A stretch of DNA of 64,000 bases, taken from assembly GCA_965219955.1 (NCBI GenBank), contig OZ244799.1:3040001-3104000 (forward strand), in the 5' to 3' direction. The notes below the pieces were generated by a model. The model saw only the letters and a program-made list of their open reading frames with translations. It ran no database searches and was not told the origin of the DNA. The position numbers were made by a program, and so were the translations under genes. This document shows, in pieces, positions 32,380 through 48,788 of the stretch; the stretch's first letter is position 1; each line of letters opens with the position of its first letter. The DNA is from a bacterium. GTDB taxonomy: Bacteria; UBA8248.

Positions 32380-32718
32380 ATGGAAATCAAGACTGAACAG
32401 GAAAACGGAACCTTGGTTGTGCAGGTTGATGGCCGAATCGACGGCGCTACCGCCCCTGAATTCGAGAGCACGATAAAGAACGTAATCAGCGATGGCGACC
32501 GCGCCGTCATTGTAAATTTCGAGGGTGTCTCATATATCAGCAGCGCCGGCCTCCGCGCCGTCCTGCTGGTCGCCAAGCAGCTAAGCCAAAGCAATACGAA
32601 GTTCGCCCTGTTCGCGCTCGGGGAGCTGACGCGCGAAGTTTTCGAGATATCCGGTTTCGACCGCATCATACAGATCCACGAGTCGAAAGCGGACGCGCTC
32701 GCCGCAACCACAAGCTGA
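32380..32718 (+). CDS. STAS-domain anti-sigma factor antagonist (RsbV/SpoIIAA-like)
   Basis: GRID, YISSAGLR with phosphoacceptor Ser, VFEISGF. Confidence 0.92.
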   Translation: MEIKTEQENGTLVVQVDGRIDGATAPEFESTIKNVISDGDRAVIVNFEGVSYISSAGLRAVLLVAKQLSQSNTKFALFALGELTREVFEISGFDRIIQIHESKADALAATTS

Positions 32719-32719
32719 G

Positions 32720-32756
32720 GGCCGGAAAGCAAAAGGGGTAAAACGCTTTCCTGGCC
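32720..32756. terminator. Hairpin between convergent STAS and kinase genes
   Basis: GGCCGGAAAGC...GCTTTCCTGGCC. Confidence 0.35.
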
Positions 32757-32862
32757 GCCTCGCCTTCCGGCTCCGCGCGTCCCGGTTCTCTGCGCGGCCG
32801 CAACAATCCTTCAACTTTCTCGATATTTTCTCAAATCTTCCGGTGCGGGGAGTCGGCGCGGA

Positions 32863-35055
32863 TCACCGCGGCAACTCGATGATCATCTCCGTGAATTCGT
32901 CCGGCTCGGTTTCGACCCGTATGTTTCCCCCATGCTGACGAATAATGTCGCTGGAAAGGGAAAGGCCGAGACCGGTGCCCTTGTCCGTCGGCTTGGTCGT
33001 GAAGAAGGGGTTGAATATCTTCTCGGCGACGTCGGGAGGCATCCCGCTCCCGTTGTCCCGAATGCGGACTTCAATGCCGTCCGGCCTGCACCTGGTGACG
33101 ACCTTCAGGGTGGGATCGTAGCGCGGCGCATCTTCGGCGGCTGAGGCGGCGAGACTTTTTCGTCTCTCGTCGGTGGCGTAGCAGGCGTTGCTCACCATGT
33201 TCAGGAAGACGCGGCCCAAATCCTGCGGGATGACATCGCATTCCACCATATCCGGATCCAGGTCCCAATCGAGCGTGAGGTTGAAGTTCGGGTCGGCCGC
33301 CCGGGCGCTGTGATAGGCAAGACGCGCGTGTTCCTCGATCAGGGTATTGATGTTGGTCGGCTGCGCTTCGCCCGAACCCCTGCCCATCTGGAGCATGCTC
33401 TCCACGATGTTGTTGGCCCGCTCCCCATGCTCGCGGATGCGCTGGAGGTTCCCGGTGAGGTCTTCGCCGATTTCGTTGATAATCTCGGCAGGATCCTCCT
33501 CGTCCTGTTTTTTCTCCTCCTCCTTCGCTTCCTGTCCGTTTTCCTGTCCGTTGCCGCTATGATCGAATACTTTCTCCAGCTCTTCCTTCAATTCCTCCAT
33601 CAACTCTTCGGAGACTTCCGAGAAGTTCTTGATGAAGTTCAGCGGATTCCTGATCTCGTGGGCGACGCCCGCCGTCAGTTCACCGAGCGCCGCCAGTTTC
33701 TCGCGCATGACGATCTGATCCTGCGCTTTCTCCAGATCGCCCAGCGCGCTTTCGAGTTCGTCGTTCTTGGCCTTGATCTCTTCGGCCAGTTTCTCCACCA
33801 GGTTCAGGCGCTGCACCTCCAGAGCGTGGCGGCGAAAGATCTCGAGCGCCGCGGCCATTTCCGCGACTTCGTCCTGCCCGCCGATATCGACTTTCTCCTC
33901 CAGGTCGCCGTCGGCCATGCGGCGCATGCGGTCCGAGAGACGCCCGAGCCGACGCGACAGCACACGGCCGATGAACAGCCACCCGATCAGCACGGCGCCG
34001 ATGAAGCTGATGGCGCTCAGCGCCAGCAGGATGTTGCTGCCGGTGCTGACGGCCTGGGCGGAATCCTGGGTGGCCTGGCGCGCGCTCTTGCGGGCCGTGC
34101 TCACCAGCGTTTCGGTAGCGGCAAGGATTTTCGCTTCCAGAGATTCGTGGAACGCGAGCAACTCGCCCTGTTTCCTCTCGAGCGCCAGTTCGCGGGCGCG
34201 CAGGTTGAAGCCCCCCTCCTCCCCGATGCTCAACTCGAGCATCTGTTCGAAGAGCGGCTCGAGAGCGTCGCGCACCGGAACCTTTCCGAGCGCGACCAAG
34301 CGCCGCCTGATGCCGCGCATCGTGGCCTCGAACCGCTCGCGCAGCGGCTCGAGCAGGGCGGCGTCCGATACGCTGAAGGCGGTGGCGAGAAGCTGCGCAG
34401 CGATGGTGGCGTCCGACCGCAAACCGGCGATGTAGCGGTAGAGGTTAATCCCCTCCTCCGAGAAGTGTTTCTCTCTGGAGACGGGCACCTTGTCGATTGT
34501 CCGGTAGCCCGTCATCGCGAAGAACAACTGATCGTCGATGGCGGGAACCATGACGCCGGTCAGTTCCTTGCGCACCCACGTGAGCTGGAGTTGCAGGGTA
34601 TCGCGCAGATCGGTGAGGTCGAAGCGCTGCAGCACCAGTCGTTTGATGGCGTTGAGGTTCTCGATCAGCACATTGCCGAGCTTTTTGATGCGCAAGGAGA
34701 TTTCCTCGTTGCCCCCCTGGCGTATCAGCGACGCCAGGGCCGTCTCGAACGCCTCCTGATCCTTTGCGACCTCGGTGGCTATCTGGTCCAGGTTGTCGGG
34801 ATTCACGACGGCGGCCAGGCGCGGCGCGGCAGCGACCAGGCCACTGCTTTTCTGTGCGGTCTCGAAGGCGCTCGCCAGGAACGGAACGGTGCCCTCGTTC
34901 ACGCGGTTCTGCACCTGCGCCACGAAACCGAACGAAACCCATGCGACCACGCTCGCGATGACGGTGAGAGAAGCGGCGGCGCCGATGCTGAGGTAGAGCT
35001 GCGTCGATATCTTGTAGCGTTTGTCCAGGAGGTTTTTGAGCGCGACTTTCATCAC
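32863..35055 (-). CDS. Membrane sensor histidine kinase (large helical periplasmic domain, HAMP, HisKA, HATPase)
   Basis: Two TM segments, HAMP (DEVAEMA), H-box [10 protein letters not shown]1/F/G2 boxes (NMVSNA, DNGSG, FFTTK, GTGLGL). Confidence 0.92.
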
Positions 35056-36236
35056 TTCTCCGGCCGCCGCATTTTTTCGGTCGGAATGTAGCGGCCGCCT
35101 TCTCCGACGACGGTCATGAAAACGGCGTCCGAACCCTGGTTGTCGCCTTTACCGTAGCGGAGCATGAATCCGCCGAGATCGATGGCGGCCACGCGGCGCA
35201 GTTCCTCGAGAAGGCAGGCGCGATCGGGATTGCGCCCGCACAGTTCGAGGGCGCGGATGGTCAGCCTGCCGGCCATATAGCCTTCGAAGGAGACGAAGCT
35301 GGGAACCGTGCCGGGTTTGTGAACCTCCAGATCCCGCCGGTAGTCCGCCGCGATCTTGAGATTTTCCGTCGTCGGGAAAGGAACCACCTGGGTGACATAG
35401 ATGCCGATGCCGGCGGGGCCGAGTTCACGCACGAGCGCATTGCTGCCCACGAACGAGATCGTCACGAAAATCGGATTGAAACCCGTATGGCGCGCCCAGG
35501 CGATGAAGGAAGCGACCGGCTTGTAGGCTCCCACGAGAACCACCGCTCCGGGGTTCACGCGCCTGATGTCGAGCAGGGCCGTCTTGACCGCCGTCGTATT
35601 CCGTGGATAGACGCCGGTGACCGCCGGTTTGAGTTTGCGCCGCTCAAGCGCGCGGCGAACGCCCCGGTAGCCCGCCAGGCCGAAAGAATCGTCCTGATAG
35701 AGCACGGCGATCTTCTTGATCCCTAAGTCGTTGATCAGCCGGTTCACCATCTCCTCGGTCTCCTGAAAGTAGGAAGCGCGCAGGTTGATCACGTTCTTCC
35801 ATTTCGGATCGCGCAAGAAGGCGGCGCCGGTGAAGGGCGCGATGTAGGGGACGCCCGCTTTTGCGGCGACCGGGGTGGCCGAGCGCGAGGTGGGCGTGCC
35901 GACGGCACCGATGAGCGCGAAGACCTTGCTCTGCTCTATCAACCGGCGCGTGTTCAGGATGGCGGCTTCGGGTTCATAGGCATCGTCGAGGGAGGTGAGT
36001 TCGAGCCGGCGCCCGTGAACGCCGCCGCGCACGTTCGCCGCACGGAAAGCGGCTTCGATGCCAAGGCGCATCTCCTCGCCCAGAGCCCTCGCGGGCCCGG
36101 TGAAGGCTGCAGATTGTCCGAAAAGGATCCGCTGGGGGGAAACGCCGGGCACGGCCGCCTGCGCTCCCGACGCCGCGCAGATGAGCACTCCGGCGAGGAG
36201 GGTGAACGCCAGGCGGATTCGTCGCGGAAGCCTCAT
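35052..36236 (-). CDS. Periplasmic ligand-binding protein, type 1 (LivJ-like fold)
   Basis: Signal peptide, GQSAAFTGP, GGVHGRRLEL..DDAYEP, YQDDSFG; no permease nearby. Confidence 0.88.
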   Translation of the reverse strand: MRLPRRIRLAFTLLAGVLICAASGAQAAVPGVSPQRILFGQSAAFTGPARALGEEMRLGIEAAFRAANVRGGVHGRRLELTSLDDAYEPEAAILNTRRLIEQSKVFALIGAVGTPTSRSATPVAAKAGVPYIAPFTGAAFLRDPKWKNVINLRASYFQETEEMVNRLINDLGIKKIAVLYQDDSFGLAGYRGVRRALERRKLKPAVTGVYPRNTTAVKTALLDIRRVNPGAVVLVGAYKPVASFIAWARHTGFNPIFVTISFVGSNALVRELGPAGIGIYVTQVVPFPTTENLKIAADYRRDLEVHKPGTVPSFVSFEGYMAGRLTIRALELCGRNPDRACLLEELRRVAAIDLGGFMLRYGKGDNQGSDAVFMTVVGEGGRYIPTEKMRRPEK

Positions 36237-36652
36237 TCACTCCTCCGCTTGACAAGGCGCATGTGGTTCTTGTTCTCCTCCCGTCGATAGGTCACATCGT
36301 CCATCATCGTCCGCACCAGGTGGATGCCGAGTCCTCCCACGGCGCGGTCTTCAATGCCCGATTCCGTGTCCGGCTCGGGCGCGTCGGTCAGGGGATCGAA
36401 CGGCCGGCCGTCGTCGATGATATCGATGATCACCGCCTCGGGGTCCGAGACGAGTTCGATGTTGATTTCACCTTCTCCGCCGCGGCTTCCGTGGTTCACG
36501 ACGTTGAGCACCAATTCTTCGAGCACGAGGTCGACCTGGAATTCGATGTCCGGCGGCCAATCCTGCTCCCGGCTGAATTCCCCGATCGCGGATTGAATGC
36601 GTGGGAGGTCGGCAGCTTCGAACCCCATTGTCAAAGATAGTTTCGCGCTCAT
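36233..36652 (-). CDS. RsbW/SpoIIAB-like anti-sigma Ser kinase (HATPase_c_2)
   Basis: EELVLNVVNHG, DDGRPFDP, GGLGIHLV. Confidence 0.9.
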   Translation of the reverse strand: MSAKLSLTMGFEAADLPRIQSAIGEFSREQDWPPDIEFQVDLVLEELVLNVVNHGSRGGEGEINIELVSDPEAVIIDIIDDGRPFDPLTDAPEPDTESGIEDRAVGGLGIHLVRTMMDDVTYRREENKNHMRLVKRRSE

Positions 36653-37866
36653 TCACTCTCTCCGCGGCGATAAAGGGTCAGGCAGGTAATGTCATCGAAT
36701 TGAGGAGCCTTGCCCGCGAAAGCATTCACCTCCTCGAAAACCTTCGTGTTGATTTCCCGGGCCGAGGCAGGCGACGAACCGCCGAGGATATCCCGAAGGC
36801 GCTCGAGACCGAACTGTTCTGCCTTCTCGTTCTCCGCCTCCGTCACCCCGTCGGTGTAGAGAATGAGGGCGTCGCCGGGAGCGAGAGTCGCGTTGTACAT
36901 ATCGTAGCTGAAATCAGGCGCGATCCCCAGAGCGACGCCCGGATCCTGGGAAAGCAAACTCGAGGAGCCGTCGGCGTGAAGGACGAGCGGGGGATTGTGG
37001 CCGCCGTTGGAGTAAACGAGTTCCCCGGTATTGGAATCGTAAATCGCGAAGAAGACGGTGACGAACATCGCGGCGTCGTTGTTCTCCTGGAGCAGGCGGT
37101 TCACCTCGCTCAGCACTTCGCCGGGGCGAAGCAGGCGGTTCACCTCGCCGAGCACATCGCCCGGATTGGCGCGCGCGACGGCGACGCTGTTGAGCAGCGT
37201 GCGGCTCGACATCATGAAAAGCGCGGCGGGCACCCCCTTGCCGGAAACGTCGGCGACCGTGATGCCGAGGCGGCCGTCGGAGAGGTCTATCACGTCGAAG
37301 AAATCGCCCCCCACGTCGCGGGCGGGCTCCATGCCCCCGAATATCTCGTAGTGGGGGCTTTCGGGAAACCGGGTCGGCAGGATCGACTGCTGCATCTTGC
37401 TGGCCAGGTCGAGGTCGCTTCTCAGCGCGACCAGCTTGTCGCGCGCCTCGAGTGCTTCGCGCAGCATGGTGAGATGCTCCAGGGTCCGCTCTATGGTGAT
37501 CCGCAAATCCTCGAAGTCGATCGGCTTGGTGACGAAGTCGAACGCGCCCCTGTTCATCGCCGTTCGAATGTTCTTCATGTCCCCGTAAGCCGAGACGACC
37601 ACGGAGCGCACGTTGGGGTCGACCGAGGGGATTTGCTTGAGCAGCGTGAGGCCGTCCATCTCCGGCATGTTGATGTCGGTGAGCACCATGTCGATAGAAT
37701 CGGCGCCGTCGTTTTCGTTCAGGCGTTCGAGCGCTTCGACTCCGTTGCGGGCGAAGACGAACGAATAGCGGCCTCTTCGAATCTCGCGCCGCATGCGCTG
37801 CAGTACGAGCTGCTCGAGATCGGGCTCGTCGTCGACCACGAGTATCCTGTGCGGCTCTTCCATCAT
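36649..37866 (-). CDS. Response regulator-PP2C (SpoIIE/RsbU-like) phosphatase
   Basis: REC (VVDDE, TDINMP, KP) plus GGDFFD, ADVSGKG, YTDGVTE, DDIT. Confidence 0.92.
   Translation of the reverse strand: MMEEPHRILVVDDEPDLEQLVLQRMRREIRRGRYSFVFARNGVEALERLNENDGADSIDMVLTDINMPEMDGLTLLKQIPSVDPNVRSVVVSAYGDMKNIRTAMNRGAFDFVTKPIDFEDLRITIERTLEHLTMLREALEARDKLVALRSDLDLASKMQQSILPTRFPESPHYEIFGGMEPARDVGGDFFDVIDLSDGRLGITVADVSGKGVPAALFMMSSRTLLNSVAVARANPGDVLGEVNRLLRPGEVLSEVNRLLQENNDAAMFVTVFFAIYDSNTGELVYSNGGHNPPLVLHADGSSSLLSQDPGVALGIAPDFSYDMYNATLAPGDALILYTDGVTEAENEKAEQFGLERLRDILGGSSPASAREINTKVFEEVNAFAGKAPQFDDITCLTLYRRGESE
37091..37168. repeat. In-frame 39-bp tandem duplication inside the PP2C domain
   Basis: Encodes PGDVLGEVNRLLR PGEVLSEVNRLL. 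Confidence 0.85.
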
Positions 37867-38303
37867 GGCCTCCCTTCCGCCAGCATCTTGTCGCGCGCCT
37901 CGAAGGCTTCCCGCACCGACTTGAGATGCTCCAGAGACCTCTCGATGGTCAGCCGCAGGTCCTCGAAATCGAGCGGCTTGTTGAGGAAATCGAACGCGCC
38001 CCTGTTCATCGCCGTGCGGATGTTCTTCATGTCCCCGTACGCAGAAACGATCACGCAGCGCAGCTTGGGGTCGAACGCCGGAATCTGCTCGAGCAGCGTG
38101 AGGCCGTCCATCTCCGGCATGTTGATGTCCGTGATGACGATGTCGATTCCATCGTCCTCGTTCAGGCGCTCGAGCGCCTCGACCCCGTTGCGGGCGAAGA
38201 CGAACGAATAGCGGCCGCTGCGAATTTCGCGCCGCATGCGCTGCAGCACCAGGCCTTCCAGGTCGGGTTCATCGTCGACCACGAGTATCTTGTACGAATC
38301 CAT
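37863..38303 (-). CDS. Stand-alone receiver protein, paralogue of the REC domain of the downstream phosphatase
   Basis: VVDDE, TDINMP, SAYGD, KP; highly similar to the first ~145 aa of 36649..37866. Confidence 0.88.
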   Translation of the reverse strand: MDSYKILVVDDEPDLEGLVLQRMRREIRSGRYSFVFARNGVEALERLNEDDGIDIVITDINMPEMDGLTLLEQIPAFDPKLRCVIVSAYGDMKNIRTAMNRGAFDFLNKPLDFEDLRLTIERSLEHLKSVREAFEARDKMLAEGRP

Positions 38304-38695
38304 CGTCCGGGCCTCTCCATCCCTTAGAGTTCATCCGACCAACGATCGAGGACTTTCGAATTCCAGCTAAATGTATAGAAGACTCACGCGGCGCGCAACT
38401 CATTTCTCACTCCGCCTCGCGCCCGGACGAACCCGCGCGGCGGCCTGCAACCCCCTGAAACCATGGCTTGAGCGGCGCCCGTGCCCGGCACGAAACCGCT
38501 CGGCCGCCGGATTCGCCCATACCGGCTTCTCTTCCCGCAGGCATCCGGACCTCCCGAGCCCGTGAGGCGATTCCGCGCCGAATGTGGATAAAGCGGCGAA
38601 AATTTCATCCGCCGCCCGGTTGTCCCGGCCCTCGCATTCGCGTATCTTGGTGTACGAAGCGCCGCCATGCGCGAACCACCAGAGGAATCCCCGCT

Positions 38696-39283
38696 TTGAC
38701 CCGCAAACCCAAGAGTAAAAAGAAAGGCGCAAGAGCCGCCGGCAGAAGCGCTCCGCGCCCGGCGAGAACTGCAGGCTCGAAGAACAAAAGCACCGCCCTG
38801 TTCGTCTGGGCGCTCGCCGTCGCCGCGGTCGTCTTCGGCGTCTATTACCTGACGGCCGCATCCGCGCACAAGGCGCGCGACGTGCCTTCCCTCGGCAACC
38901 GCCACATCCGCGTCGGCACGAGCGGCGCAGTTTCCTACAACACGAATCCCCCCACCTCGGGGCCCCACTATCCGACCATCGTCTCCTGGGGCGTGCACTG
39001 GAAGCCGATCGACAAGGGCTTTCAGGTGCATAACCTCGAAGACGGCGGCGTGCTGGTGCAGTATGGCTGCACCGATTGCCCCGAACTCGTGAAAAAGCTC
39101 GAAAACCTGGTGCGCGGCTACCCGAAGTACGTCATCCTCGCCCCGTATCCCTCCATGAAGCACAGAATCGCGCTCACCGCCTGGGGCAAGATAGACACGC
39201 TGGAAGCCTTCGACGAGAAGCGCATCACCGCCTTCATCGACGCCTTTCGCGGCCTCGACCATCACCCGCGAGGGAGGAGATAG
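38696..39283 (+). CDS. DUF3105-like membrane-anchored protein
   Basis: YNTNPPTSGPHY, VHNLEDGGV.VQY, CxxC, IALTAWG; basic N-terminus plus one TM; TTG start inferred. Confidence 0.75.
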   Translation: MTRKPKSKKKGARAAGRSAPRPARTAGSKNKSTALFVWALAVAAVVFGVYYLTAASAHKARDVPSLGNRHIRVGTSGAVSYNTNPPTSGPHYPTIVSWGVHWKPIDKGFQVHNLEDGGVLVQYGCTDCPELVKKLENLVRGYPKYVILAPYPSMKHRIALTAWGKIDTLEAFDEKRITAFIDAFRGLDHHPRGRR

Positions 39284-39349
39284 GGTTTCCGGAGGGAACG
39301 ACACTCTTCGGTTGACGACTTCTTTTCGCCGATCGATTCGGAGCAATGC

Positions 39350-40030
39350 GGGGGTGTGGAAAAAGCCTTCTCGGTTGGAATTGACGATGCATTTCGTGCG
39401 CGCCTGGATTCGGGCGTCGTTACAGAGACGGCTGATGCGGTTCACCACGAAGCCGTCATTCCGGCGAAAGCCGGAATCCATTTTGACTTTTCACATGGCT
39501 GGGCGGCCACAAACTTGTTGTTGCGCGGCGTTCAGATGCGGAATCCAGAGGATTCGCCTTTCGTTTTTGTTTTCGATTCTGATCCTCCCCAAAGGGAGGC
39601 GAAAAGGCAAAGGCAAAATGGATTCCGGCTTTCGCCGGAATGACGGCCAAAACCCCAAGCCGAGAAATCGCTTCCTCCTCGCCGACTCTCCCTCGACTCG
39701 AAACCCACCCCCCCTACCCCCCTTGTCAGGGGGGCAAGAAAAAGCAAAACCCCTCAGCCCGGCGAGAGCGCATCGCCTTTTTATACCCCCCTGACTAGGG
39801 ATTGTTGAAAAAGCCTGTTTCGGGATCGGCGGCAAGGAGGTTCACGCGGCGCAGACGTGATGGTTTTGTAGGGACAGGCCTCCGTGCCTGTCCTGCTCTT
39901 CGTGGTTGTCCTTCGTCAGGACAGGCACGGAGGCCTGTCCCTACGGCGAACAATCTCAAAGGTCGGACAGGATTTTTGGGAAGCCCCGCATGGCCGATCT
40001 CTCGGGCGGCCACGGGGGGCCGCCCCTACG
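39350..40030. repeat. Large composite repeat patch
   Basis: Perfect 34-bp inverted pair at 39452-39485 and 39614-39647; CCCCTTGTCAGGGGG hairpin; 39798-39870 matches 28582-28655; REP doublet GTAGGGACAGGC...GCCTGTCCCTAC at ~39868-39944. Confidence 0.8.
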
Positions 40031-40110: not shown

Positions 40111-41883
40111 TCAACCCCCTCCGCCGCGCACCGCTCCCGAAACTTCCACGCGAACCGTCACGATGTCCGTGTCGTGGTATTGCTGGTGGCGAACCGAAGA
40201 CGCGAGGTGGCGCAGCAGTCTGAGCGAGACTTCGCGCTCAATCGGCGCGCCGGCGGTCTGCTCGCCGAGCAGCGCGATTTTATCCTGGAGGTTCTCCTCG
40301 CCGCCCGCGGCGACGAACTCCATCACCGCGCCGCCGTCTTCCTTGTGCGCCACCACGAGGAGGCGCCTCCGCTCGCGGCTCTCGTCGGCTTCATCCGGGC
40401 GCAGGAGCGTCAGCAGCGTCTCCTCGCCCGCGGCGTCCAGGCGATGCGCCATCGCCTCATCCCATCCGCTGGCCGAGGCGAACTCGCCGAGAAACTCCCT
40501 GATCTTCGGCAAAGCGGAGATGTCGAACGCCGCCTCCATCCGGCTGCGGCGCGGTTCGGTGAATTCGACGAACAGGGTCATGATCATGGCGACGAGGCCG
40601 CCGGCCGTCATTCCGTTGTTCAGCAGGCCGCCCGCGAAGGTGGAGAAGTATTCGGGATAGATGACGCCGTTCTGGAAGCCCACGCCCGCCCAGAAGGCGA
40701 TGCCCGCCACCAGGCCCTTTCGGTAGTCGATGCCGTCCTGAATGACCATCCGCATGCCGACAATGAAGAGCATCGCCAGCAATACGGTCATGTAGGCCGC
40801 GGCGACCGGACCCGGTATCGCCAGCACCACGGCGACGAACTTGGGCAGAAACGCCAGGGAGAGGAACACCAGCCCGGCGGCGACTCCGACGCTGCGCGCG
40901 CCGACGCCGGTGAGTTCGGTGACGGAAACGCTCGTCGAATAGGTCGTGTTCGGCACCGTCGCCAAAAGGCCGGAGAGCAGGTTGCCCACCCCGTCGGCGG
41001 CCACGGCGCCCTGCACCGCCTTGAAATCCACCGCCCGGGGCCGCCGCCAGGATACGCGCTGGATGGCGGCGCCGTCGCCCACGGTCTCGATGGCGCCGAT
41101 CAGGGTCACGAAAATGAATCCCGGCAGAAGCGTCCAGAACACCGGCCCGAAGCTCAAGTCCAGGCCGGGCCACGCGCCCTGGGGAAGGCCGACCCAGGCG
41201 GCCTCCGCGACGCGGGCCGTGTCGTAGATGCCGAACCACCCGCCGACGATCGATCCGGCGACCACGCCGATCACCGGCGCCCAGAGGCGCAGCGCCCCCG
41301 CCGCCTTCAGCGCGATGCCGAGGATGACGGCTACGGTCGCCAGCGCGCTCAGCGGAGCGGCGAGCGGCGGGCTGCCCTTCGGCACGTCATCGAGCATGCC
41401 GAAGATGATGGGCATCACCGTCACCGCTATCAGCATGATGACGGTTCCCGCCACGGTCGGCGTCAGCACCCGCCGGAACAGGGAGAGCCGCTCGGAAAGC
41501 ACGAACTGAAACAGCGAGGAGGCGAGAACCAGCGTGGCGAGCATCCCCGGCCCTCCCTTGGCGAGCGCCGCGATGCAGACGGCGATGAAGGCGCCCGAGG
41601 TGCCCATGATGAGCACGTAGCCCGCGCCGAAGCGGCCGATCCGGCGAGCCTGGAGCATCGTGGTCGCGCCGCAGATCGCCAACGCGGCGAACACCGCCCA
41701 CGAGAGATAGTCCGCGGTTCCGCCGGCGGCGCGCACCACGATCGCGGGCGCGAACACGATGCCGCCCGCACACAGGGCGGCGAGCTGCAAGCCCAGGCCG
41801 AACGCGAGCAGGGGCGGCGGCTTCTCGTCGGCTTCGTAGCGTACGTCGGTGTTCGTGTGCTGGTCGGAATTCTCGGCGTTCAA
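40111..41883 (-). CDS. NCS2/NAT (xanthine-uracil permease family) transporter fused to a degenerate RsbW-like C-terminal domain
   Basis: Multi-TM permease (ETVGD, ADGVGN, LTGV.AR, IPGPV); last ~142 aa (40111-40539) align by eye with the RsbW at 36233; TTG start with RBS GGAAGGA. Confidence 0.8.
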   Translation of the reverse strand: MNAENSDQHTNTDVRYEADEKPPPLLAFGLGLQLAALCAGGIVFAPAIVVRAAGGTADYLSWAVFAALAICGATTMLQARRIGRFGAGYVLIMGTSGAFIAVCIAALAKGGPGMLATLVLASSLFQFVLSERLSLFRRVLTPTVAGTVIMLIAVTVMPIIFGMLDDVPKGSPPLAAPLSALATVAVILGIALKAAGALRLWAPVIGVVAGSIVGGWFGIYDTARVAEAAWVGLPQGAWPGLDLSFGPVFWTLLPGFIFVTLIGAIETVGDGAAIQRVSWRRPRAVDFKAVQGAVAADGVGNLLSGLLATVPNTTYSTSVSVTELTGVGARSVGVAAGLVFLSLAFLPKFVAVVLAIPGPVAAAYMTVLLAMLFIVGMRMVIQDGIDYRKGLVAGIAFWAGVGFQNGVIYPEYFSTFAGGLLNNGMTAGGLVAMIMTLFVEFTEPRRSRMEAAFDISALPKIREFLGEFASASGWDEAMAHRLDAAGEETLLTLLRPDEADESRERRRLLVVAHKEDGGAVMEFVAAGGEENLQDKIALLGEQTAGAPIEREVSLRLLRHLASSVRHQQYHDTDIVTVRVEVSGAVRGGGG

Positions 41884-42107
41884 TATCGCATCCTTCCCGG
41901 CTGGAAAACGGGTCTGTGGTGGGGCGGAAACCTGCGTCCGGTGCCCTCGCAACGGAGCGGTAAGTTTCTCACACCTCTTCCGGCCCCTCAAGAAAAAAGC
42001 CCGGCGCAAACCGTGGACGGGCGAAAATCGGCGATAGGGTGAGATGCCGGGGAGTTTCGGAAGAGGATCACTTTTTGTATTTTTTCCGGCGAAAAGTTGC
42101 ATTTTTG

Positions 42108-42135: not shown

Positions 42136-42284
42136 TTGGGAAGTTGTTTCTTTTGCCTGAACGGAAAATCGGCAACGCAGCCACGCTCACCCCGACGCCG
42201 GGGCATGGAGCCACGGCCAGGGAAAGAACGGAACACTGCCTGCTTCCGGGCGGGCCCGGCTCATCACCTGGAGAACTCGAAGCA

Positions 42285-42572
42285 GTGAAAACCGTAGAGG
42301 AAATACGCGAAGATATTATCAGAAAAGCAAGCGAGAACGAGGCATTCCGCGCCGAATTGCTGGCCGACCCCAAGGACGCCATCGAAAAGGAACTGGGGGT
42401 CACCATTCCCGAGGGGTTCAAGATCGGCGTTCACGAAGACAACATCATGAGCATCAACCTGGTGTTGCCTCCGGCCGAGTTGAGCGAGGCGGACCTGAGC
42501 GCCGTCGTGGCCGGCTCGCAGTCGTGGCAAGACTTCGCCAACGCCTGGAACAGCTTGAACCAGAACTCCTGA
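42285..42572 (+). CDS. NHLP-leader (proteusin-type) RiPP precursor, 95 aa
   Basis: Leader IIRKA.ENEAFRAELLADPK.AIE.ELG..IP...VHE......LVLP..ELSEADL.AVVAG; predicted core SQSWQDFANAWNSLNQNS from 42516. Confidence 0.88.
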   Translation: MKTVEEIREDIIRKASENEAFRAELLADPKDAIEKELGVTIPEGFKIGVHEDNIMSINLVLPPAELSEADLSAVVAGSQSWQDFANAWNSLNQNS

Positions 42573-42769
42573 TGCGGTATACTGAAAAAGTTCCATAATC
42601 TACTTGACAGGTTTGCCGAAACGCCCCGGGGAGAGGGTTGGTTAAGGATGCCGTATTGTGGGTTCGATCGGCTCTGTGGCCCGCTTCGCTGAAGAGAGGC
42701 CGGGGAGCCGGACCCGGTCATCACCGCCTTCCCCCCCAATGTCTGTATCCCGTTCAGGAACAGGGTTCG

Positions 42770-43867
42770 ATGATGTCTGAGAATTTCCGGGACGTCTTTC
42801 CAAGGTTGCGCCGCTTCGTTCCACCGGCCCTGCTCGATGGCCCGTGGTGGGAGCGCCTGGTGGATCGCGTCGGGGAGCTCCCGAGCTGGCTGACCCTGAA
42901 TTACGCGGCCTTCGAGTTCCGGCTGGGAGACGCTGCGCCCGCCGCCGACTATTTCGTATCGGTTACGCCTGATCGCCCGTCCATGGAGTATTACGTTCGC
43001 CTGGGCGAGGATGCAAAGCCCGACTCCCCGGAGGCGGCCCTCGGCCGGGTCTACTCCCTCATGAACGGGGCGGGTCCCCCTTCCGAACCCTCTCTCGCCG
43101 GCTGGTTCAGGGCGTCGATGCTCGAGTACGACATCGCGGAGGTCCCCTCGAACCTGAACCCGGCTCCGGGCGTGTTCCTGGCGCTCAAGCCTCAATCCGA
43201 ACTGAATGAAGAGGTCGCGGGCTCAAGAACGCCCCGCCGCCTGGCCGCCACCATCGCGAGCGCCGCGGGGTGGGAGGAAGACGAGGAGGAGCGCCTCGCC
43301 GTGGAGCGGACCTTCGCCGCCCTGCCCCGCACCGGCGTGGTGGACCAGATCGGCGCCGTGCCCGAGCGCGGGCCGCGATCCATCCGCCTGATCGTGGACG
43401 GGTTGAAACTGCGCAACGTGCCCGCGTTCCTGAAGCGGCTGAAATGGGACGGCTCCACCCGGAAAGTGATGGACACGCTGGAGGAGATGCGCGACATGAC
43501 GCCCGTCTTCCGGCTGGCGCTGGACGTCGCGGCGAACGGCGTGGGGCCGCGCCTGGGTCTGGAGATGTACAGGCCGAGGAAACCCTCGAACCTCGACTAC
43601 TGGCTGACGTCGGGGCGCAACGCCTGGCGTCCCGTCGTGGACTACCTCGAGCAGATGGAATGGTGCCTGCCGGAGAAAGGAGACGGCCTCCGCGCCTTCC
43701 CGGGAATCGAGCGGCTCTTCGAGGAAAAGGGCATGTCCATCCTCTACAAGGGAATCAACCACTTCAAGCTGTCCATCGAGGGCGACGCCGTGGAAGCCAA
43801 GGCCTACGCCGCCCTCGCCTACTTCCGTCTCTACGCCGATTCCGAGGGGGAGGCGGGGGCTCTTTAA
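42770..43867 (+). CDS. Uncharacterised protein, putative RiPP maturase (possibly ABBA-type prenyltransferase fold)
   Basis: 365 aa, host-like codon usage; motifs FEFRLG..ADY, LEYD, PRLGLE, INHFKL..EAKAY; directly follows the precursor; fold is inference. Confidence 0.5.
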   Translation: MMSENFRDVFPRLRRFVPPALLDGPWWERLVDRVGELPSWLTLNYAAFEFRLGDAAPAADYFVSVTPDRPSMEYYVRLGEDAKPDSPEAALGRVYSLMNGAGPPSEPSLAGWFRASMLEYDIAEVPSNLNPAPGVFLALKPQSELNEEVAGSRTPRRLAATIASAAGWEEDEEERLAVERTFAALPRTGVVDQIGAVPERGPRSIRLIVDGLKLRNVPAFLKRLKWDGSTRKVMDTLEEMRDMTPVFRLALDVAANGVGPRLGLEMYRPRKPSNLDYWLTSGRNAWRPVVDYLEQMEWCLPEKGDGLRAFPGIERLFEEKGMSILYKGINHFKLSIEGDAVEAKAYAALAYFRLYADSEGEAGAL

Positions 43868-44081: not shown

Positions 44082-45696
44082 CAGCCTGTCGGGCTTTGGC
44101 CTGCCAAGGAGTTCGAAGCACCAATCGTGGGAGTGATTTTCGGGGTTCTTCTCGGTAATCGATTCTTGTTGGCCGGCGATTCGGTGTCAGGAGCCATGAT
44201 CGGCCCTCACAGGCCCGGTGGGAGTCATAGCGGCCGGCAACAGGCCACGGGACGAGGGCGTTTATCCTCCGATCACGCCGACTTCAGGTTGTGCAGACGC
44301 TTGCAGTTATAAGCCAGCATCACCAGGACCCACTCGCCCTGCACCTTCTCGAGACCGCGCAAGAGGAACTGCCGGAAGCCCATCGCCTGCTTGACGATGC
44401 CGAACACCGGCTCCACCGTCTGCCGCCGCAGGCGATAACGGGCGCGCTCTTCCGGCTTCGCCATCTTCGCGCGCATCGCCGCAATCCACTCCGCTCGAAC
44501 TTCCGGACCTGGCCGGGAAGCCACCGGTGGCCGGAAGTCGTGCCGACGGCGCCCCCCTTCGGCTTGCGTGGCCACCAGAACCTCGACGCCCCGTCTCTCG
44601 AGTTCTTCCACTTCGCTGCCCGTCGCGTAGCCGCTGTCCGCCAACACACGCGCCGGCGCGGCAACCGAAGGCGGAATCGCCTCCACGTCCGCCACCAGTT
44701 CCCCGCGGTCGCTCGCGTTGTTGCTCACACGCGCTCCCAGCACCAACTGGCTGCCTTCGGCATCCACCACCGCCTGCGCGTTGTACGCCTGGCGATACTC
44801 GTGACGCTTGCTCTTGCGCATCAAGGCGCTGTCCCCATCCGTCAGGTTGATCTGCCGCCCCTCTTCGGGCTTCTCCCGAGGGGGCTTGATGCGCGGACCC
44901 TTCCTCCGACCTGAACGGCGCTCCCGAGACGCCGCCTTGCGTTCATATTCCGCCCGACCCGCCTCGGCCGACCTCTTCGCGCGGCGCTCCAGTTCCGCGC
45001 ACGCCGCATCCAGCTTCGACTTCAACTCCTCGCGACGCGCCAACTCCTCCGGCAGCGCCTGCGGATCCCCTACCTCCTGCGCATCTTCGCTCTCCGCACG
45101 CTCCAGCAACTCCTCGACCTCTCCGCGCAATTGAGAGCCCAACGCCTGCGCACGGTCATACCGGACGTTGTTGTGCTTGCTCGCGTTCGCGTCCACCTTC
45201 GTCCCGTCCACGCTCACCGTCCCGACCCGCAACAACTTCAACTCCTTCGCCAGCAGCAAAACCTGCTCGAACGTCTCCGCTATCGCCTCGAAGTTATCGC
45301 GACGGAACGCGCAGATCGTGTCGTGGTCCGGGTGTGTGTTCGACGCCACGTATCGAACCCCGATATCCCGGTACGTCGCGCGCTCGATCCGGCGCGAACC
45401 GAATATCCCGTTCGCGTAGCAGTAAATCAGCAGCGCCAGCATCATCCGGGGATGGTACTGCGCTGAACCCGTGCCGCGCTCGTTCACGCGGAATGACCCC
45501 AGAGGCACCCGTTCCACCGCCTCCACTACGAAGTGCGCCAGATCGTCCTCCGGCAACCACTCCCGCATGTCCACAGGAAGAAGATACAACTGCGACTGAT
45601 TACAATCTACAAACTTCGCCACCCCAATCCCCTCCCTTAAAAATACCTCGCGAGAACGACATATTATAAAAGGTAGGGCCTAAGTCCGACAGGCTG
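44082..45696 (-). mobile_element. IS1182-family insertion sequence, complete
   Basis: Terminal IRs CAGCCTGTCGGGCTTTGGCC / CAGCCTGTCGGACTTAGGCC (18/20); 4-bp direct repeat CTAA at 44078-44081 and 45697-45700. Confidence 0.9.
44273..45622 (-). CDS. IS1182-family DDE transposase
   Basis: YHPRMML, SRRIE, PDHDTI, VDGTK, NLTD.DS, ADSGY, YRLR..TVEPVFG..K. Confidence 0.93.
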   Translation of the reverse strand: MAKFVDCNQSQLYLLPVDMREWLPEDDLAHFVVEAVERVPLGSFRVNERGTGSAQYHPRMMLALLIYCYANGIFGSRRIERATYRDIGVRYVASNTHPDHDTICAFRRDNFEAIAETFEQVLLLAKELKLLRVGTVSVDGTKVDANASKHNNVRYDRAQALGSQLRGEVEELLERAESEDAQEVGDPQALPEELARREELKSKLDAACAELERRAKRSAEAGRAEYERKAASRERRSGRRKGPRIKPPREKPEEGRQINLTDGDSALMRKSKRHEYRQAYNAQAVVDAEGSQLVLGARVSNNASDRGELVADVEAIPPSVAAPARVLADSGYATGSEVEELERRGVEVLVATQAEGGRRRHDFRPPVASRPGPEVRAEWIAAMRAKMAKPEERARYRLRRQTVEPVFGIVKQAMGFRQFLLRGLEKVQGEWVLVMLAYNCKRLHNLKSA

Positions 45697-45893: not shown

Positions 45894-48788
45894 GTGAATG
45901 CCTCAGAAACTGAAGTCCGCATCAGAGTCGAACGAAGCGGGCTGGCGTCGTTCCTGTTCGCAGTCTTGCGTCCACGAGACGCCAGGGTTGCTTTCGTGAG
46001 CGCGAATTCCCTGAGACTAATGCACGGGTCCCGATACACGGAAATCCCTATTGGGGACATCGTGTCGGCCAAAGTCGAAACCGGGCTACGCTGGTCCGGG
46101 ATACGCTTTCATCATGCTAAAGGGTGCGCAACCGTGTCGGGGCTATCGCGGGACGACGCTTGGGCGTTCGCCGAAGTGTTGGAAACCAACAGGGTCTACT
46201 GGTGGCGCCGAGTGCTCGCGGCAGAGATCGCAGCTCTCCATTCGTTAGATGAGCGTCTGCTGCAACTTGTAAGTCCGCCAGAGTACATAGCGCGCAGCGT
46301 CTTCCGTAAACTGAGGGGCGATGCAAAGAAGGCGGTGGAACAGTTCTTGGAGCGCTGGCCGAAGGCACTGTCTAATACTCCAGAAATTCGACTGTTGAAA
46401 AGGGTACAGGATTTTCTGGAAGACCCAGAGCGTATACGGGAGAAAGCGAACAGGGCTTTCGTCGAAAATGAAATGTTCCGGTTGCGGGAGTTTTTCGACC
46501 GGATTGAAGCCAGACCGCTTACCGAGGAACAACGCCGGGCGGTCGTCATAGATGATGACCGGAACCTGGTGATCGCCGCTGCCGGCAGCGGCAAGACCTC
46601 GGTGATCGTCGCCAAGACCGGCTTGCTTCTCTATAGAGGCGACCGCCGCCCGTCGGAACTGCTGCTCCTGGCATTTGCGAAAGACGCCCAGAACGAGATG
46701 GAAGAACGGGTCCGCAAGCGTATCGGCAACGAAGCGGCGGACGGCATGACCGTCAGGACGTTCCACAGCTTGGGCATGGCGATTATCGGCGAAGCCGAAG
46801 GCAGGCGTCCGGGACTGGCCAAGACGGCTGAAGACCCAAAGGCGCTGCTCGACCTGCTCAAGAGCATCATCACCGAGCTGGCTGAAGAGCGAAAGTTCTT
46901 GGGAGCTTTGCTGAAGTGGTTTCAGTCTCAGTTCGCGCCTTACAGGAGTGAGCACGAATTCCAGAGTTATGGTGACTACTGGGACTATATCCGGCAACAT
47001 GATATCCGCTCGCTAAAAGGCGAGAAAGTACGGAGTTACGAGGAATGTGAGATTGCCAACTTCCTCTATCTGAACGGCGTTCCCTACGAGTACGAACGTG
47101 ACTATGAGCACGAAACGGCTACGCCGGAAAAGGGGCCATACAGGCCGGATTTCTATCTGACCGAAGCCGGTATCTATATTGAGCATTTCGGGCTCGACAT
47201 TGAGGGAAAGACCGCTCCGTTCGTTCCGCAGAAAGAATATCTCGAGTCGATGGCGTGGAAGCGCGGACTCCACTCCCAATGCGGCACCACCCTGATCGAG
47301 ACTTTCAGCTACGAGCGCGCCGCCGGAAGGTTGACCGAGAACCTAGCCGGGAGACTGCGTGCTTACGGCGTATCCCTATCTCCCATTCCCAATGATGAGG
47401 TCTTCGCCATATTGAATCGGCAGGGACAGGTTGACCCGTTTATTAGCCTTCTGGCGACCTTTCTCAAACACTTCAAGGGAACGCGGCTGAGTTTCCGTGA
47501 GGTTGCCCGGCGGGCCGCCAACCATCGGGACCGCCTGCGGGCCGAAGCCTTCCTCACCCTGTTCCGGCCAGTCTTCGAGCGCTACGAGGAAAAGCTCTCC
47601 CAATCGGGAGAGATCGATTTCCACGACATGATCGACAGGGCGACGGGCCATGTCGAGGCCGGACGCTACCGCAGCCCCTTCGGCTATATCCTGGTCGATG
47701 AGTTCCAGGACATTTCACCGGACAGGGCAAGGTTGTTGAAAGCGCTGCTGGAGAAGTCGCCAAGCGCGCGGCTGTTCGCCGTCGGGGACGACTGGCAGGC
47801 GATATACCGTTTCGCAGGATCGGACATCGGCATCATGCGGGAGTTTACGGAGCATTTCGGCGGCTACGATCGCATCCCTCTGGAGACGACCTTCCGCTGC
47901 GCGGACCGCATTGCCTCTGTCGCTACCCAATTCGTCCTGCGCAACCCTGCGCAGATATCGAAGAGGGTTGGTTCAGTACACCGGGCGGACAGGCCGCGCG
48001 TCCATGTTGGTCTCCCCGGCGAGCAAGAACTCCCTCTGTTGAATGAGGCGCTAGACAAGATCACAGAGGATGCCGCAAAGTTTGAGGGGAGATCGAGCGT
48101 GCTATTATTGGGCCGGTACAGGCACACGCGGCCGCAGAACATGTCCGCTCTGGCAAGGAATTATCCCGGGCTCGGGATATCCTACAAGACCGTGCACAGA
48201 TCCAAGGGGCTCGAAGCGGATTATGTCGTGGTTCTCGACCTGTGTTCCGGAAAATATGGTTTTCCCACCGAAATCGACGACGACCCGCTGCTCGACCTAG
48301 TCCTCTCTGTGCCCGAAGAGTACCCGAACGCAGAGGAGCGGCGCCTGTTTTACGTCGCCATCACCCGTGCCAGACGCCGCGTCTTCCTGCTTGCCGAGAG
48401 CGGTCCTCCTTCTCCCTTTGACATAGAACTGTTCGACGGGGAATACGACATCACCGTCTTTGGCTGGTTGCCGGATGGCGACGTCCCCTGCCCGGTATGC
48501 GTTAAGGGACACCTCAGGCAACGCGAAAACAAGCGGAACGGCGGCATCTTCTACGGCTGCTCGAACTACCCCTATTGTGAGCATACACAGCGGCCCTGCC
48601 CGGTTTGCAGGAAGGGATTGCCGGTCAAGGAGGAAGAAGCCTTCCGCTGCCGAGAGTGCGGCGAGTTGATCGAGACCTGCCCCAAATGCGGCGGCTGGCT
48701 GCAGGAAAGAGTCAGTAAATACGGCCCTTTTCTGGGATGCTCGAATTATCCCAAGTGCAAATACACTCGCGACGATACGAAAGAATAA
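45894..48788 (+). CDS. UvrD-family DNA helicase IV-like protein with C-terminal topoisomerase-type Zn ribbons
   Basis: AAAGSGKT, LVDEFQD, VGDDWQAIY, TVHRSKGLE, EERRLFYVAITRA; C-terminal CxxC..GCSNYP.C repeats. Confidence 0.88.
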   Translation: MNASETEVRIRVERSGLASFLFAVLRPRDARVAFVSANSLRLMHGSRYTEIPIGDIVSAKVETGLRWSGIRFHHAKGCATVSGLSRDDAWAFAEVLETNRVYWWRRVLAAEIAALHSLDERLLQLVSPPEYIARSVFRKLRGDAKKAVEQFLERWPKALSNTPEIRLLKRVQDFLEDPERIREKANRAFVENEMFRLREFFDRIEARPLTEEQRRAVVIDDDRNLVIAAAGSGKTSVIVAKTGLLLYRGDRRPSELLLLAFAKDAQNEMEERVRKRIGNEAADGMTVRTFHSLGMAIIGEAEGRRPGLAKTAEDPKALLDLLKSIITELAEERKFLGALLKWFQSQFAPYRSEHEFQSYGDYWDYIRQHDIRSLKGEKVRSYEECEIANFLYLNGVPYEYERDYEHETATPEKGPYRPDFYLTEAGIYIEHFGLDIEGKTAPFVPQKEYLESMAWKRGLHSQCGTTLIETFSYERAAGRLTENLAGRLRAYGVSLSPIPNDEVFAILNRQGQVDPFISLLATFLKHFKGTRLSFREVARRAANHRDRLRAEAFLTLFRPVFERYEEKLSQSGEIDFHDMIDRATGHVEAGRYRSPFGYILVDEFQDISPDRARLLKALLEKSPSARLFAVGDDWQAIYRFAGSDIGIMREFTEHFGGYDRIPLETTFRCADRIASVATQFVLRNPAQISKRVGSVHRADRPRVHVGLPGEQELPLLNEALDKITEDAAKFEGRSSVLLLGRYRHTRPQNMSALARNYPGLGISYKTVHRSKGLEADYVVVLDLCSGKYGFPTEIDDDPLLDLVLSVPEEYPNAEERRLFYVAITRARRRVFLLAESGPPSPFDIELFDGEYDITVFGWLPDGDVPCPVCVKGHLRQRENKRNGGIFYGCSNYPYCEHTQRPCPVCRKGLPVKEEEAFRCRECGELIETCPKCGGWLQERVSKYGPFLGCSNYPKCKYTRDDTKE

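Follow-up and report, generated by a model that had tools for sequence, protein, structure and literature searches.

A divergent subfamily of NCS2-type permeases predicted to carry a C-terminal RsbW-like domain with a degenerate ATP site

Carriers of the NCS2/NAT and SLC26 families form dimers that are held together by their gate domains, and in SLC26 carriers a STAS domain comes after transmembrane helix 14 (TM14). The proteins RsbW and SpoIIAB are homodimers. According to a study on Mycobacterium smegmatis, kinase-negative RsbW homologues of this species act by protein binding alone, RsbW3 doing so via RsbW1 (PMC7693655). In the present study, a gene that apparently combines both types of protein was analyzed in a stretch of 64,000 nucleotides (nt) from a bacterium of the lineage UBA8248 (assembly GCA_965219955.1, contig OZ244799.1, positions 3,040,001 to 3,104,000), which is referred to as the window and provides the coordinates used below. 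The gene, located at 40111..41883 on the minus strand, is predicted to encode a carrier with the NCS2/NAT fold that is fused to an RsbW-like pseudokinase domain. An earlier note on this DNA had interpreted the protein as a transporter-receptor (transceptor) coupling transport to partner switching, a reading that is weighed below against others.

The longest open reading frame (ORF) over the permease gene extends from 40111 to 42102 on the minus strand. The start was taken at 41883, where the sequence (41881..41897) reveals a TTG codon at 41881-41883 that is preceded by GGAAGGA at 41891-41897 with a spacer of 7 nt. The resulting model specifies 590 amino acids plus the stop codon. P0004 and P0005, which are its closest homologues, are equally long (590 amino acids, 92-93% identical over the searched part), and homologues in general comprise 580-590 amino acids. 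The deduced N-terminus agrees with the homologue N-termini in the family alignment. The 590-residue model was used throughout, residue n being encoded at 41883-3(n-1), and all features of the protein are located on the minus strand. A short N-terminal tail and a 14-TM NCS2/NAT domain, delimited by means of Pfam, Foldseek and a profile search of the PDB, occupy residues 1-441 (40561..41883). A conserved basic linker, PRRxR, joins TM14 to the C-terminal domain, which comprises residues 447-580 (40144..40545) and was assigned to the RsbW/SpoIIAB/UsfX-like GHKL fold by AlphaFold2 (AF2) modelling, Foldseek and VIA alignment. The full-length AF2 model reached a predicted local distance difference test score (pLDDT) of 83.1 and a predicted TM-score (pTM) of 0.76. 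A weak Pfam match to DUF5691 (19.1 bits at a cut-off of 27) was dismissed for being below the threshold.

The membrane part, residues ~20-440, belongs to the Pfam family Xan_ur_permease (PF00860), with 147.3 bits at a gathering threshold of 27, an E-value of 6.6e-43 and coverage of model positions 6-382 out of 389. The AF2 model displays the 14-TM UraA/UapA fold, as the full-length model retrieved UapA as top match in the Foldseek search (5i6c; E 4.4e-17, TMt 0.79), followed by UraA (TMt 0.83) and SVCT1 and then by SLC26 carriers at E ~1e-8. The profile search versus the PDB likewise detected UapA (1.5e-35). The substrate-site residues present a mixed picture, which had been noticed before from the sequence alone and was confirmed by a profile alignment to UapA. 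In TM1, the LGLQH of UapA corresponds to GLGLQL in the permease, the His being replaced by Leu (Q33-L34, 41782..41787 in the alignment of hidden Markov models); among 30 diverse family members the Gln is present in 26 and the His in one. In TM8, ECIGD of UapA corresponds to ETVGD, so that E266 and D270 are retained in the window protein (IETVGD, 41074..41088). The first of these positions is variable in the 30 members (E in 11, K in 8, R in 4 and Q in 3) and the second is occupied by D in 17. The NAT signature motif of TM10 has the general form [Q/E/P]-N-x-G-x4-T-[R/K/G]; the permease reads T-S-V-S-V-T-E-L-T-G at this place and has thus lost the first four positions, with the terminal T-G being retained. 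Accordingly, YSTSVS is aligned with FAQNNG of UapA, and T317-S-V-S320 (40924..40935) takes the place of QNNG. The Q and the G of the signature are absent from all 30 members and the N is found in two.

The permease also missed the cut-offs of the relevant NCBIfam models, scoring 172.4 versus 291.8 for ncs2 (TIGR00801), 189.7 versus 414.15 for the xanthine permease pbuX (TIGR03173) and 39.4 versus 40 for NCS2_1 (NF037981). Since the nucleobase signature is lost and these scores are below the cut-offs, the permease family would represent a divergent branch of NCS2 for which a standard nucleobase is an unlikely substrate.

The C-terminal part of the permease had been claimed to align with a stand-alone RsbW encoded about 3.5 kb away. 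This RsbW gene (36233-36652, minus strand; HATPase_c_2, 1.5e-26) ends 3.46 kb from the permease stop codon, and the strings quoted in support of the claim are present in both translations. Several comparisons detected the relationship beyond chance: BLASTP aligned the last 149 residues with the window RsbW at 12 identities in 47 positions (E 4e-6 in a single comparison that covers strand 1 to helix 2 only), and hhalign aligned a profile of 36 domain sequences with the same protein at a probability of 75% over 50 columns. When the domain profile was searched against the 46,215 six-frame ORFs of the genome, it retrieved the window permease (1.8e-70) and another permease copy (3e-58), RsbW (7e-4) being the sole further match, and in the reverse direction the window RsbW matched the permease ORFs of three distant loci at ~1e-4. 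HATPase_c_2 was the sole Pfam family that recurred among the 36 domain sequences, with eight matches that are all below the threshold (best E 0.0066), and the C-terminus of the permease in locus L073 (genome G029) reached 27.3 bits at a cut-off of 27.4. On the window permease itself, neither PF13581 nor any other HATPase family of Pfam matched at E<=1. The sequence similarity to RsbW is detectable in strand 1 and helices 1-2.

A separate AF2 model of the domain, calculated from the 36-sequence alignment (pLDDT 83.2, pTM 0.79), consists of a strand, two long helices, a short helix, two strands, a helix, a loop of low confidence, a helix and two final strands. The suggestion of an RsbW-type GHKL fold, for which a Foldseek check had been proposed, is well borne out by this model. 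The leading Foldseek matches in the PDB were UsfX (8ih8_C, E 7e-7), the SigF/anti-sigma complex 8jzt, SpoIIAB (1th8 and 1l0o), RsbW (6m37) and the RsbW domain of Rv1364c. Structural alignment with VIA resulted in Z-scores of 15.6 for UsfX (8ih8_C; root-mean-square deviation 2.5 over 114 residues), 15.5 for RsbW (6m37_C), 14.7 for Rv1364c and 14.0-14.2 for SpoIIAB, the whole range for RsbW, SpoIIAB and UsfX matches being 15.6-13.7, followed by SiaB (11.3), LvrC (10.9) and the ATP domains of histidine kinases (at most 7.7). This ranking places the modelled domain with the small anti-sigma-factor type of GHKL proteins, beyond a generic ATPase fold. A PDB sequence search with the domain profile yielded nothing meaningful (best E 0.75), and when the whole protein was used as query, designed repeat proteins were the only matches to its C-terminal region, a result taken as compositional. 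In the ESM Atlas the domain retrieved only unnamed clusters and one cluster (score 0.92) that carries HATPase_c_2 on 15% of its members and may serve as a lead.

The state of the ATP site was deduced from an alignment of 273 domain matches in 270 sequences, comprising the window protein and the matches of the protein and representative searches. The earlier note had listed the losses N>T in the N-box, DDG>AAG and GGLG>REVS, and all three were recovered as described and found to extend through the family. In the N-box equivalent E487-E488-T-L-L-T492 (40408..40425), the Glu pair is retained in 257 of 260 and 258 of 260 family sequences, and the position of the Mg-ATP-binding Asn is occupied by T in 179, S in 50, A in 12 and N in only one of 261 sequences. 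The G1-box equivalent is A525-A-G527 (40303..40311) instead of the D-D-G of RsbW, with A in 206, V in 24, S in 19 and D in none of 265 sequences at the position of the Asp. The G2-box equivalent R550-E-V-S553 (40225..40236) replaces G-G-L-G and reads R/Q-E-V/I-S across the family, glycine being rare or absent at all four positions. S553 is kept in 247 of 254 sequences, and the G2 equivalent opens the most conserved motif of the domain, SLRLLRHxASSVRHQQYH. Near-invariant residues found instead of the canonical ones are W474, R481, E487, E488, E522, F523, N531, D534, S553, R555, H566, QQYH 567-570 and D573, and these conserved residues may border the pocket that formerly held the nucleotide. The counterpart of the ATP lid varies in length owing to insertions and deletions and was modelled with low confidence (pLDDT 52-68). 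With the N-box Asn, the G1 Asp and the G2 glycines replaced throughout the family, the domain is predicted to be unable to bind Mg-ATP in the GHKL manner and would be a family-wide pseudokinase.

The combination of carrier and domain is widespread. A word-indexed search with residues 440-590 yielded 3694 proteins at E<=1e-3 (candidates of 324-1033 amino acids), and PF00860 was the only family found in 119 of 120 proteins among the matches listed. An exhaustive search of representatives at 50% identity detected 592 clusters, in which the full-length representatives, of ~580-595 amino acids, always carry the domain at residues ~440-580; many of the shorter representative matches are probably fragments. 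The single protein among the 120 that deviated, P0021, consists of 423 amino acids and combines N-terminal integrase domains (Arm-DNA-bind_3, SAM-like) with the last helices and the C-terminal domain of the permease, and it is probably a mobile-element insertion or a chimera of gene calling. In the genome collection at least 583 stretches contain the permease family, as determined by a scan that was built on query peptides and favours close relatives, and 76 of these loci were kept. The names provided by the sources, if any, are 'purine/pyrimidine permease' or 'hypothetical protein'. A tblastn search with the domain against 72,556 plasmids yielded no match. Across 30 members, the mean pairwise identity of the C-terminal domain (0.455) equals that of the membrane part (0.448). 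Given this equal conservation and its near-exclusive occurrence on this carrier, the domain appears to be a constitutive part of the transporter.

According to the record titles, relatives with 55-78% identity are present in Nitrospinota, Nitrospirota, Alpha- and Gammaproteobacteria, Binatia, Latescibacterota, Verrucomicrobiota, Acidobacteriota, Chloroflexota, Actinomycetota and Tectimicrobiota, and permeases that share 70-78% identity occur in genomes titled as very different phyla. The distribution in the phylum of the window genome (G000) is patchy, with 21 of 51 genomes including G000 containing the family. Leaving G000 aside, these are 19 of 22 genomes of its own genus, none of 19 from other genera of the same family and one of seven from a second family. 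The high identity across phyla along with this patchy occurrence suggests a horizontal spread of the permease family. Another copy of the permease in the window genome (G000:C1:4004236-4006074, equivalent to L086:8236-10074; 64% identical) has this C-terminal domain as well. Its neighbours encode a large polyketide synthase (KS-AT-KR-ER-MT-ACP domains), a phosphopantetheinyl transferase, a hydrolase, a Rieske oxygenase and hydantoinase A/B. As this copy branches away from the window copy, on a long branch near Latescibacterota rows of the permease tree, a separate acquisition is suggested.

Considering all data together, we regard it as an even chance that the domain is a nucleotide-independent cytoplasmic module with a regulatory or dimerisation role on a divergent NCS2 carrier. 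According to this model, TM14 in the gate domain of a 14-TM elevator carrier of the UraA/UapA type would lead through the short basic linker into the RsbW-fold domain of ~135 residues, which would hang from the gate or scaffold domain by the dimer axis, at the same place as STAS in SLC26/SulP carriers. There it would pair with its twin, as RsbW-type proteins do, and/or touch the moving core domain, and this pairing or contact could make the dimer more stable and control the elevator movement, perhaps triggered by a ligand or partner that is common to all members. Dimerisation, gating and the involvement of any ligand are what we infer here, next to the observed architecture, fold, motif loss, conservation, distribution and neighbourhoods.

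Several points weigh against this interpretation. The conserved polar residues could equally be used as a binding site for an external partner, and the substrate-site positions vary within the family, so that one common ligand is not assured. In the congeneric genomes G055 and G066 the permease gene is located immediately upstream of a REC-PP2C gene on the same strand, with gaps of 96 nt (G055) and 2 nt (G066) as derived from simple ORF calls in which the start is the first start after a stop; this arrangement would fit co-transcription and thus a functional link in these genomes. Moreover, the adjacency of the permease and the partner-switching operon is kept within one clade even though the RsbW proteins are only 59-62% identical (61% between G055/G066 and the window). 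The G066 permease ORF (L092:6992-8650, 552 amino acids) lacks the first ~40 residues and starts inside the first membrane helices; the gene may be frameshifted or truncated, or it may use a different start codon.

Among the alternatives, it seems conceivable, if rather doubtful, that the domain is a small-molecule sensor whose one-time ATP pocket was remodelled (E487/E488, N531, D534, S553, R555 and H566) to accommodate a metabolite other than ATP that exerts allosteric feedback on transport. This metabolite could be the transported compound or its product. The positions of the conserved polar residues would suit such a site, since by alignment only they map to the N-box helix, the G1 region, the start of the G2 helix and strand 4, and the equivalent of the ATP lid, which is variable in length and modelled with low confidence, points in the same direction. 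The residues of the carrier's substrate site vary, however, whereas the motifs of the domain do not, which argues against the sensing of the carrier's own substrate.

As kinase-negative RsbW proteins are documented to act by binding, interpretations in which the domain binds a protein partner have to be considered as well. One of these, which we regard as unlikely, is that the domain serves family-wide as a membrane-tethered, kinase-negative receptor resembling an anti-sigma factor or anti-adaptor. It would sequester a soluble partner whose gene is located elsewhere in each host, for instance a STAS-only protein or the STAS domain of a SulP carrier, and release it depending on the state of transport. 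The top structural matches are indeed anti-sigma factors that were solved with STAS or sigma partners (8ih8, 6m37, 1th8 and 8jzt), surface-forming polar residues are strongly conserved, and STAS, RsbW-type and PP2C genes are present in all 32 host genomes examined. However, these families are common in large genomes anyway, STAS being detected in 10 and HATPase_c_2 in 12 of 14 control genomes, and the distant members of the permease family lack gene linkage. The window genome, furthermore, contains no sigma factor of the SigB/F/G type above the cut-off (best 138.5 bits versus 234.35).

The remaining interpretations depend on the genes that surround the permease. From the permease to lower coordinates, the window contains a palindromic repeat resembling repetitive extragenic palindromes (REP-like), a DUF3105 gene on the plus strand, genes for a REC protein, a REC-PP2C protein, RsbW, a Peripla_BP_6 protein and a HAMP histidine kinase on the minus strand, and a divergent STAS gene. 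The REP-like element, a perfect 28-nt inverted repeat with a 21-nt spacer, is located at 39868..39944 between the permease stop codon and the next gene, and with 68 exact copies of its arm and 70 of the complement in the 4.28-Mb genome it belongs to a dispersed palindromic element. The DUF3105 gene (38468..39283, plus strand; Pfam 2.2e-26) separates the permease from the partner-switching cluster, which was assigned by Pfam and occupies both strands of 32380..38303. The cluster comprises the genes for STAS (32380-32718, plus strand; 7.8e-21) and, on the minus strand, HAMP-HisKA-HATPase kinase (32863-35055), Peripla_BP_6 (35052-36236), the RsbW protein mentioned above, REC-PP2C (36649-37866) and a stand-alone REC protein (37863-38303), the last being an extra gene that is absent in G055 and G066. 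With a Peripla_BP_6 protein and a HAMP histidine kinase next to REC-PP2C, RsbW, the extra REC and the divergent STAS, the input side of this cluster is unusual. Because the REP-like palindrome and the DUF3105 gene on the opposite strand intervene, the permease of the window is located outside the partner-switching operon. In G055 and G066 the DUF3105 gene is found on the other side of the permease, which indicates that the locus has been rearranged among congeners. The window genome encodes one true RsbW and two single-domain STAS proteins. As no SigB/F/G-type sigma factor reaches the cut-off in the genome, the output of the neighbouring switch is probably non-sigma. Three further STAS matches are located in tandem open frames of 559-638 amino acids (G000:C1:4170390-4174145), and the one that was checked is a 587-residue protein with Sulfate_transp and STAS domains.

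Two ORFs of this region were rejected as genes: a 114-residue ORF at 39491-39835 (minus strand) has 55 piecemeal matches in the genome and looks like translated repeat DNA, and a 365-residue ORF at 38384-39481 (minus strand) is without family match, rich in Arg and Gly and probably an antisense shadow of DUF3105. Upstream of the permease, ORFs at 42638-43867 (plus strand, 409 amino acids) and 42264-42596 (minus strand, 110 amino acids) have no match in Pfam or NCBIfam. Both are kept upstream of the permease in seven to eight close loci, and the 409-residue protein has one paralogue in the genome. A DDE transposase of the insertion sequence type (DDE_Tnp_1, DUF772) is encoded 2.4 kb upstream of the permease at 44273-45622 (minus strand), and the gene at 45894-48788 (plus strand) encodes a 964-residue helicase of the UvrD type, which begins with a helicase IV N-terminal domain and carries C4 zinc ribbons of the topoisomerase type at its C-terminus.

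The conservation of the neighbourhood was analyzed by comparing the window neighbours with all ORFs of the 76 permease loci by means of phmmer. The genes for STAS, the kinase, the binding protein, RsbW and REC-PP2C were found together in ten loci (L001, L002, L007, L010, L011, L012, L043, L044, L047 and L049), and part of the operon set is present on the two short contigs L004 and L037. None of the operon genes was detected in L003, which has a short flank, and in L017, which has full flanks, the permeases being 92% and 88% identical, respectively. In the 62 distant loci, phmmer detected none of these genes, the window STAS, RsbW and PP2C included. Because single-sequence searches are weak, the search was repeated with Pfam models, and among the matches listed none of HATPase_c_2, STAS or SpoIIE was located within 10 kb of the permease in the 32 distant chromosome-level genomes. 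The nearest of the matches listed were an RsbW and PP2C pair at ~12-13 kb (G011) and STAS at ~12 kb (G014) and ~21 kb (G005). A clustering of all flanking ORFs, called in six frames and including shadow ORFs, resulted in a largest cluster that covers 10 of the 62 distant loci and thus no conserved neighbour. The second permease copy of the window genome is likewise unlinked to partner-switching genes. The survey of gene neighbours in homologues, which the earlier note had itself set beforehand as the test against its reading, accordingly revealed largely no association with STAS, RsbW or PP2C genes, and a coupling of the family to partner switching is left without support by these counts.

A quick IQ-TREE analysis of 74 permeases, from which rows below 480 amino acids including L049 had been dropped, grouped the 12 operon-linked rows without exception in a single clade, which comprises 15 rows (support of 92 in the Shimodaira-Hasegawa-like approximate likelihood ratio test, SH-aLRT) and also includes L003, L004 and L017. 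In turn, the genomes G057, G061 and G065 of the same genus (completeness 94-99%) have kept the whole operon and yielded no permease match. Given this placement in a single clade, the linkage amounts to a single event in evolution. It arose once and is old within its genus-level clade, most of which has retained it, and losses occurred in both directions. The position of the permease near the operon is thus inherited within that clade and no property of the family. A functional tie specific to this lineage would be consistent with the linkage, which nevertheless fails to account for the conservation of the domain in hundreds of genes that are unlinked.

It is quite improbable, in our view, that the protein is a transceptor restricted to this lineage, in which the domain docks the STAS protein (32380) or forms heterodimers with RsbW (36233) and the transport state feeds the REC-PP2C/RsbW/STAS switch. 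Such a tie would be in line with the adjacency of permease and operon in the window, the ten related loci, G055 and G066, with the single true RsbW and the only two single-domain STAS genes of the genome, and with the binding of RsbW homologues to each other without kinase activity, as described for RsbW3 and RsbW1 (PMC7693655). It is opposed by the descent of all operon-linked permeases from one event, by L017, which belongs to the clade and lacks the operon, by the three congeners with the operon alone and by the elements that intervene in the window. The conserved residues of the domain are also common to members in all 32 distant genomes that lack such a neighbour. A complex prediction for the C-terminal domain and the neighbouring STAS protein, run without controls, resulted in scores of 0.11 and 0.08 versus a mark of 0.32 and provides evidence neither way. 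Of the transceptor proposal, the structural part was thus retained, namely a GHKL fold with a dead ATP site on a carrier devoid of the nucleobase signature, whereas the family-wide signalling part was not; as a whole, the transceptor reading is only weakly suggested by the present data.

In a broader scheme, each of the two sister families of carriers with a 7+7 elevator fold may have captured one half of the partner-switching pair, SLC26/SulP the STAS domain and the NCS2 subfamily the RsbW fold. The pseudo-RsbW domain would still recognise free or SulP-borne STAS without phosphorylation, and the permeases would act as transport-gated membrane nodes, feeding the adjacent operon in the genus of the window. 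We mention this scheme as speculative and improbable. That the domain has remained active as an ATP-dependent serine kinase or as an ATPase, by means of a non-canonical site, is extremely improbable, because the near-invariant N-box Glu pair is confronted with a Mg-binding Asn in one of 261 sequences, an adenine-binding Asp in none of 265, absent G2 glycines and the missing HATPase_c_2 match on the permease.

The interpretation as a nucleotide-independent regulatory or dimerisation module therefore remains our preferred one, and the permeases would constitute an orphan NCS2 subfamily with a pseudo-RsbW tail. No description of a fusion between an NCS2 carrier and an RsbW-like or GHKL domain was found in the full-text literature, the coverage of which excludes most subscription journals, so that the designation of this widespread design as hitherto undescribed is provisional. 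NCS2/NAT is a textbook family, and hundreds of its clusters at 50% identity carry an unannotated domain with an anti-sigma fold, while the current annotation as 'purine/pyrimidine permease' probably misstates the substrate. The old question of the role of such C-terminal domains in carriers becomes testable in a bacterial system.

A comparison with known systems emphasizes the composite nature of the protein. With the NCS2/NAT carriers UapA, UraA, XanQ and SVCT1 the permease shares the 14-TM fold, clear sequence homology and, in the window protein, the E..D pair of TM8. In contrast to these carriers, it lacks the TM1 His and the first four positions of the TM10 signature, scores below the NCBIfam cut-offs for ncs2 and pbuX and possesses an extra C-terminal globular domain that is unaligned to any of the matched solved structures (UapA, UraA and SVCT1). 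With RsbW, SpoIIAB and UsfX the domain shares the fold (Z 13.7-15.6) and a detectable sequence similarity, but it is fused to a carrier instead of being free-standing, its ATP motifs are lost and it has no Pfam match. The kinase-negative RsbW homologues, namely RsbW1 and RsbW3 of M. smegmatis and UsfX of Mycobacterium tuberculosis, resemble it by their RsbW fold, UsfX being the top structural match, and this group would gain a membrane-anchored member; the known proteins are, however, soluble and act in the SigF switch, whereas the window genome lacks a sigma factor of the SigB/F/G type above the cut-off. The SLC5/STAC histidine kinases CbrA and CrbS are likewise covalent fusions of a solute carrier with a signalling module that contains a GHKL domain (PMC9100948), but they have HisKA and an active HATPase_c and signal to response regulators, whereas the permease has no phospho-acceptor domain and its GHKL domain is predicted to be dead. 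The closest parallel in layout is provided by the SLC26/SulP carriers with STAS domain, an analogy that had been drawn before and proved apt, the window genome itself encoding such a protein of 587 amino acids. Both families have related 7+7 elevator folds (Foldseek E ~1e-8) and a membrane domain that is followed by a cytoplasmic domain of ~100-140 residues from the partner-switching toolkit. The likeness is one of layout only, as the membrane domain of the permease is NCS2 and not Sulfate_transp (Xan_ur_permease being its sole Pfam family) and the appended domain has the kinase-type GHKL fold of RsbW and not that of STAS. Besides STAS in SLC26, the permease subfamily would accordingly provide a second, independent case in which a 7+7 elevator carrier has acquired a partner-switching fold at its C-terminus.

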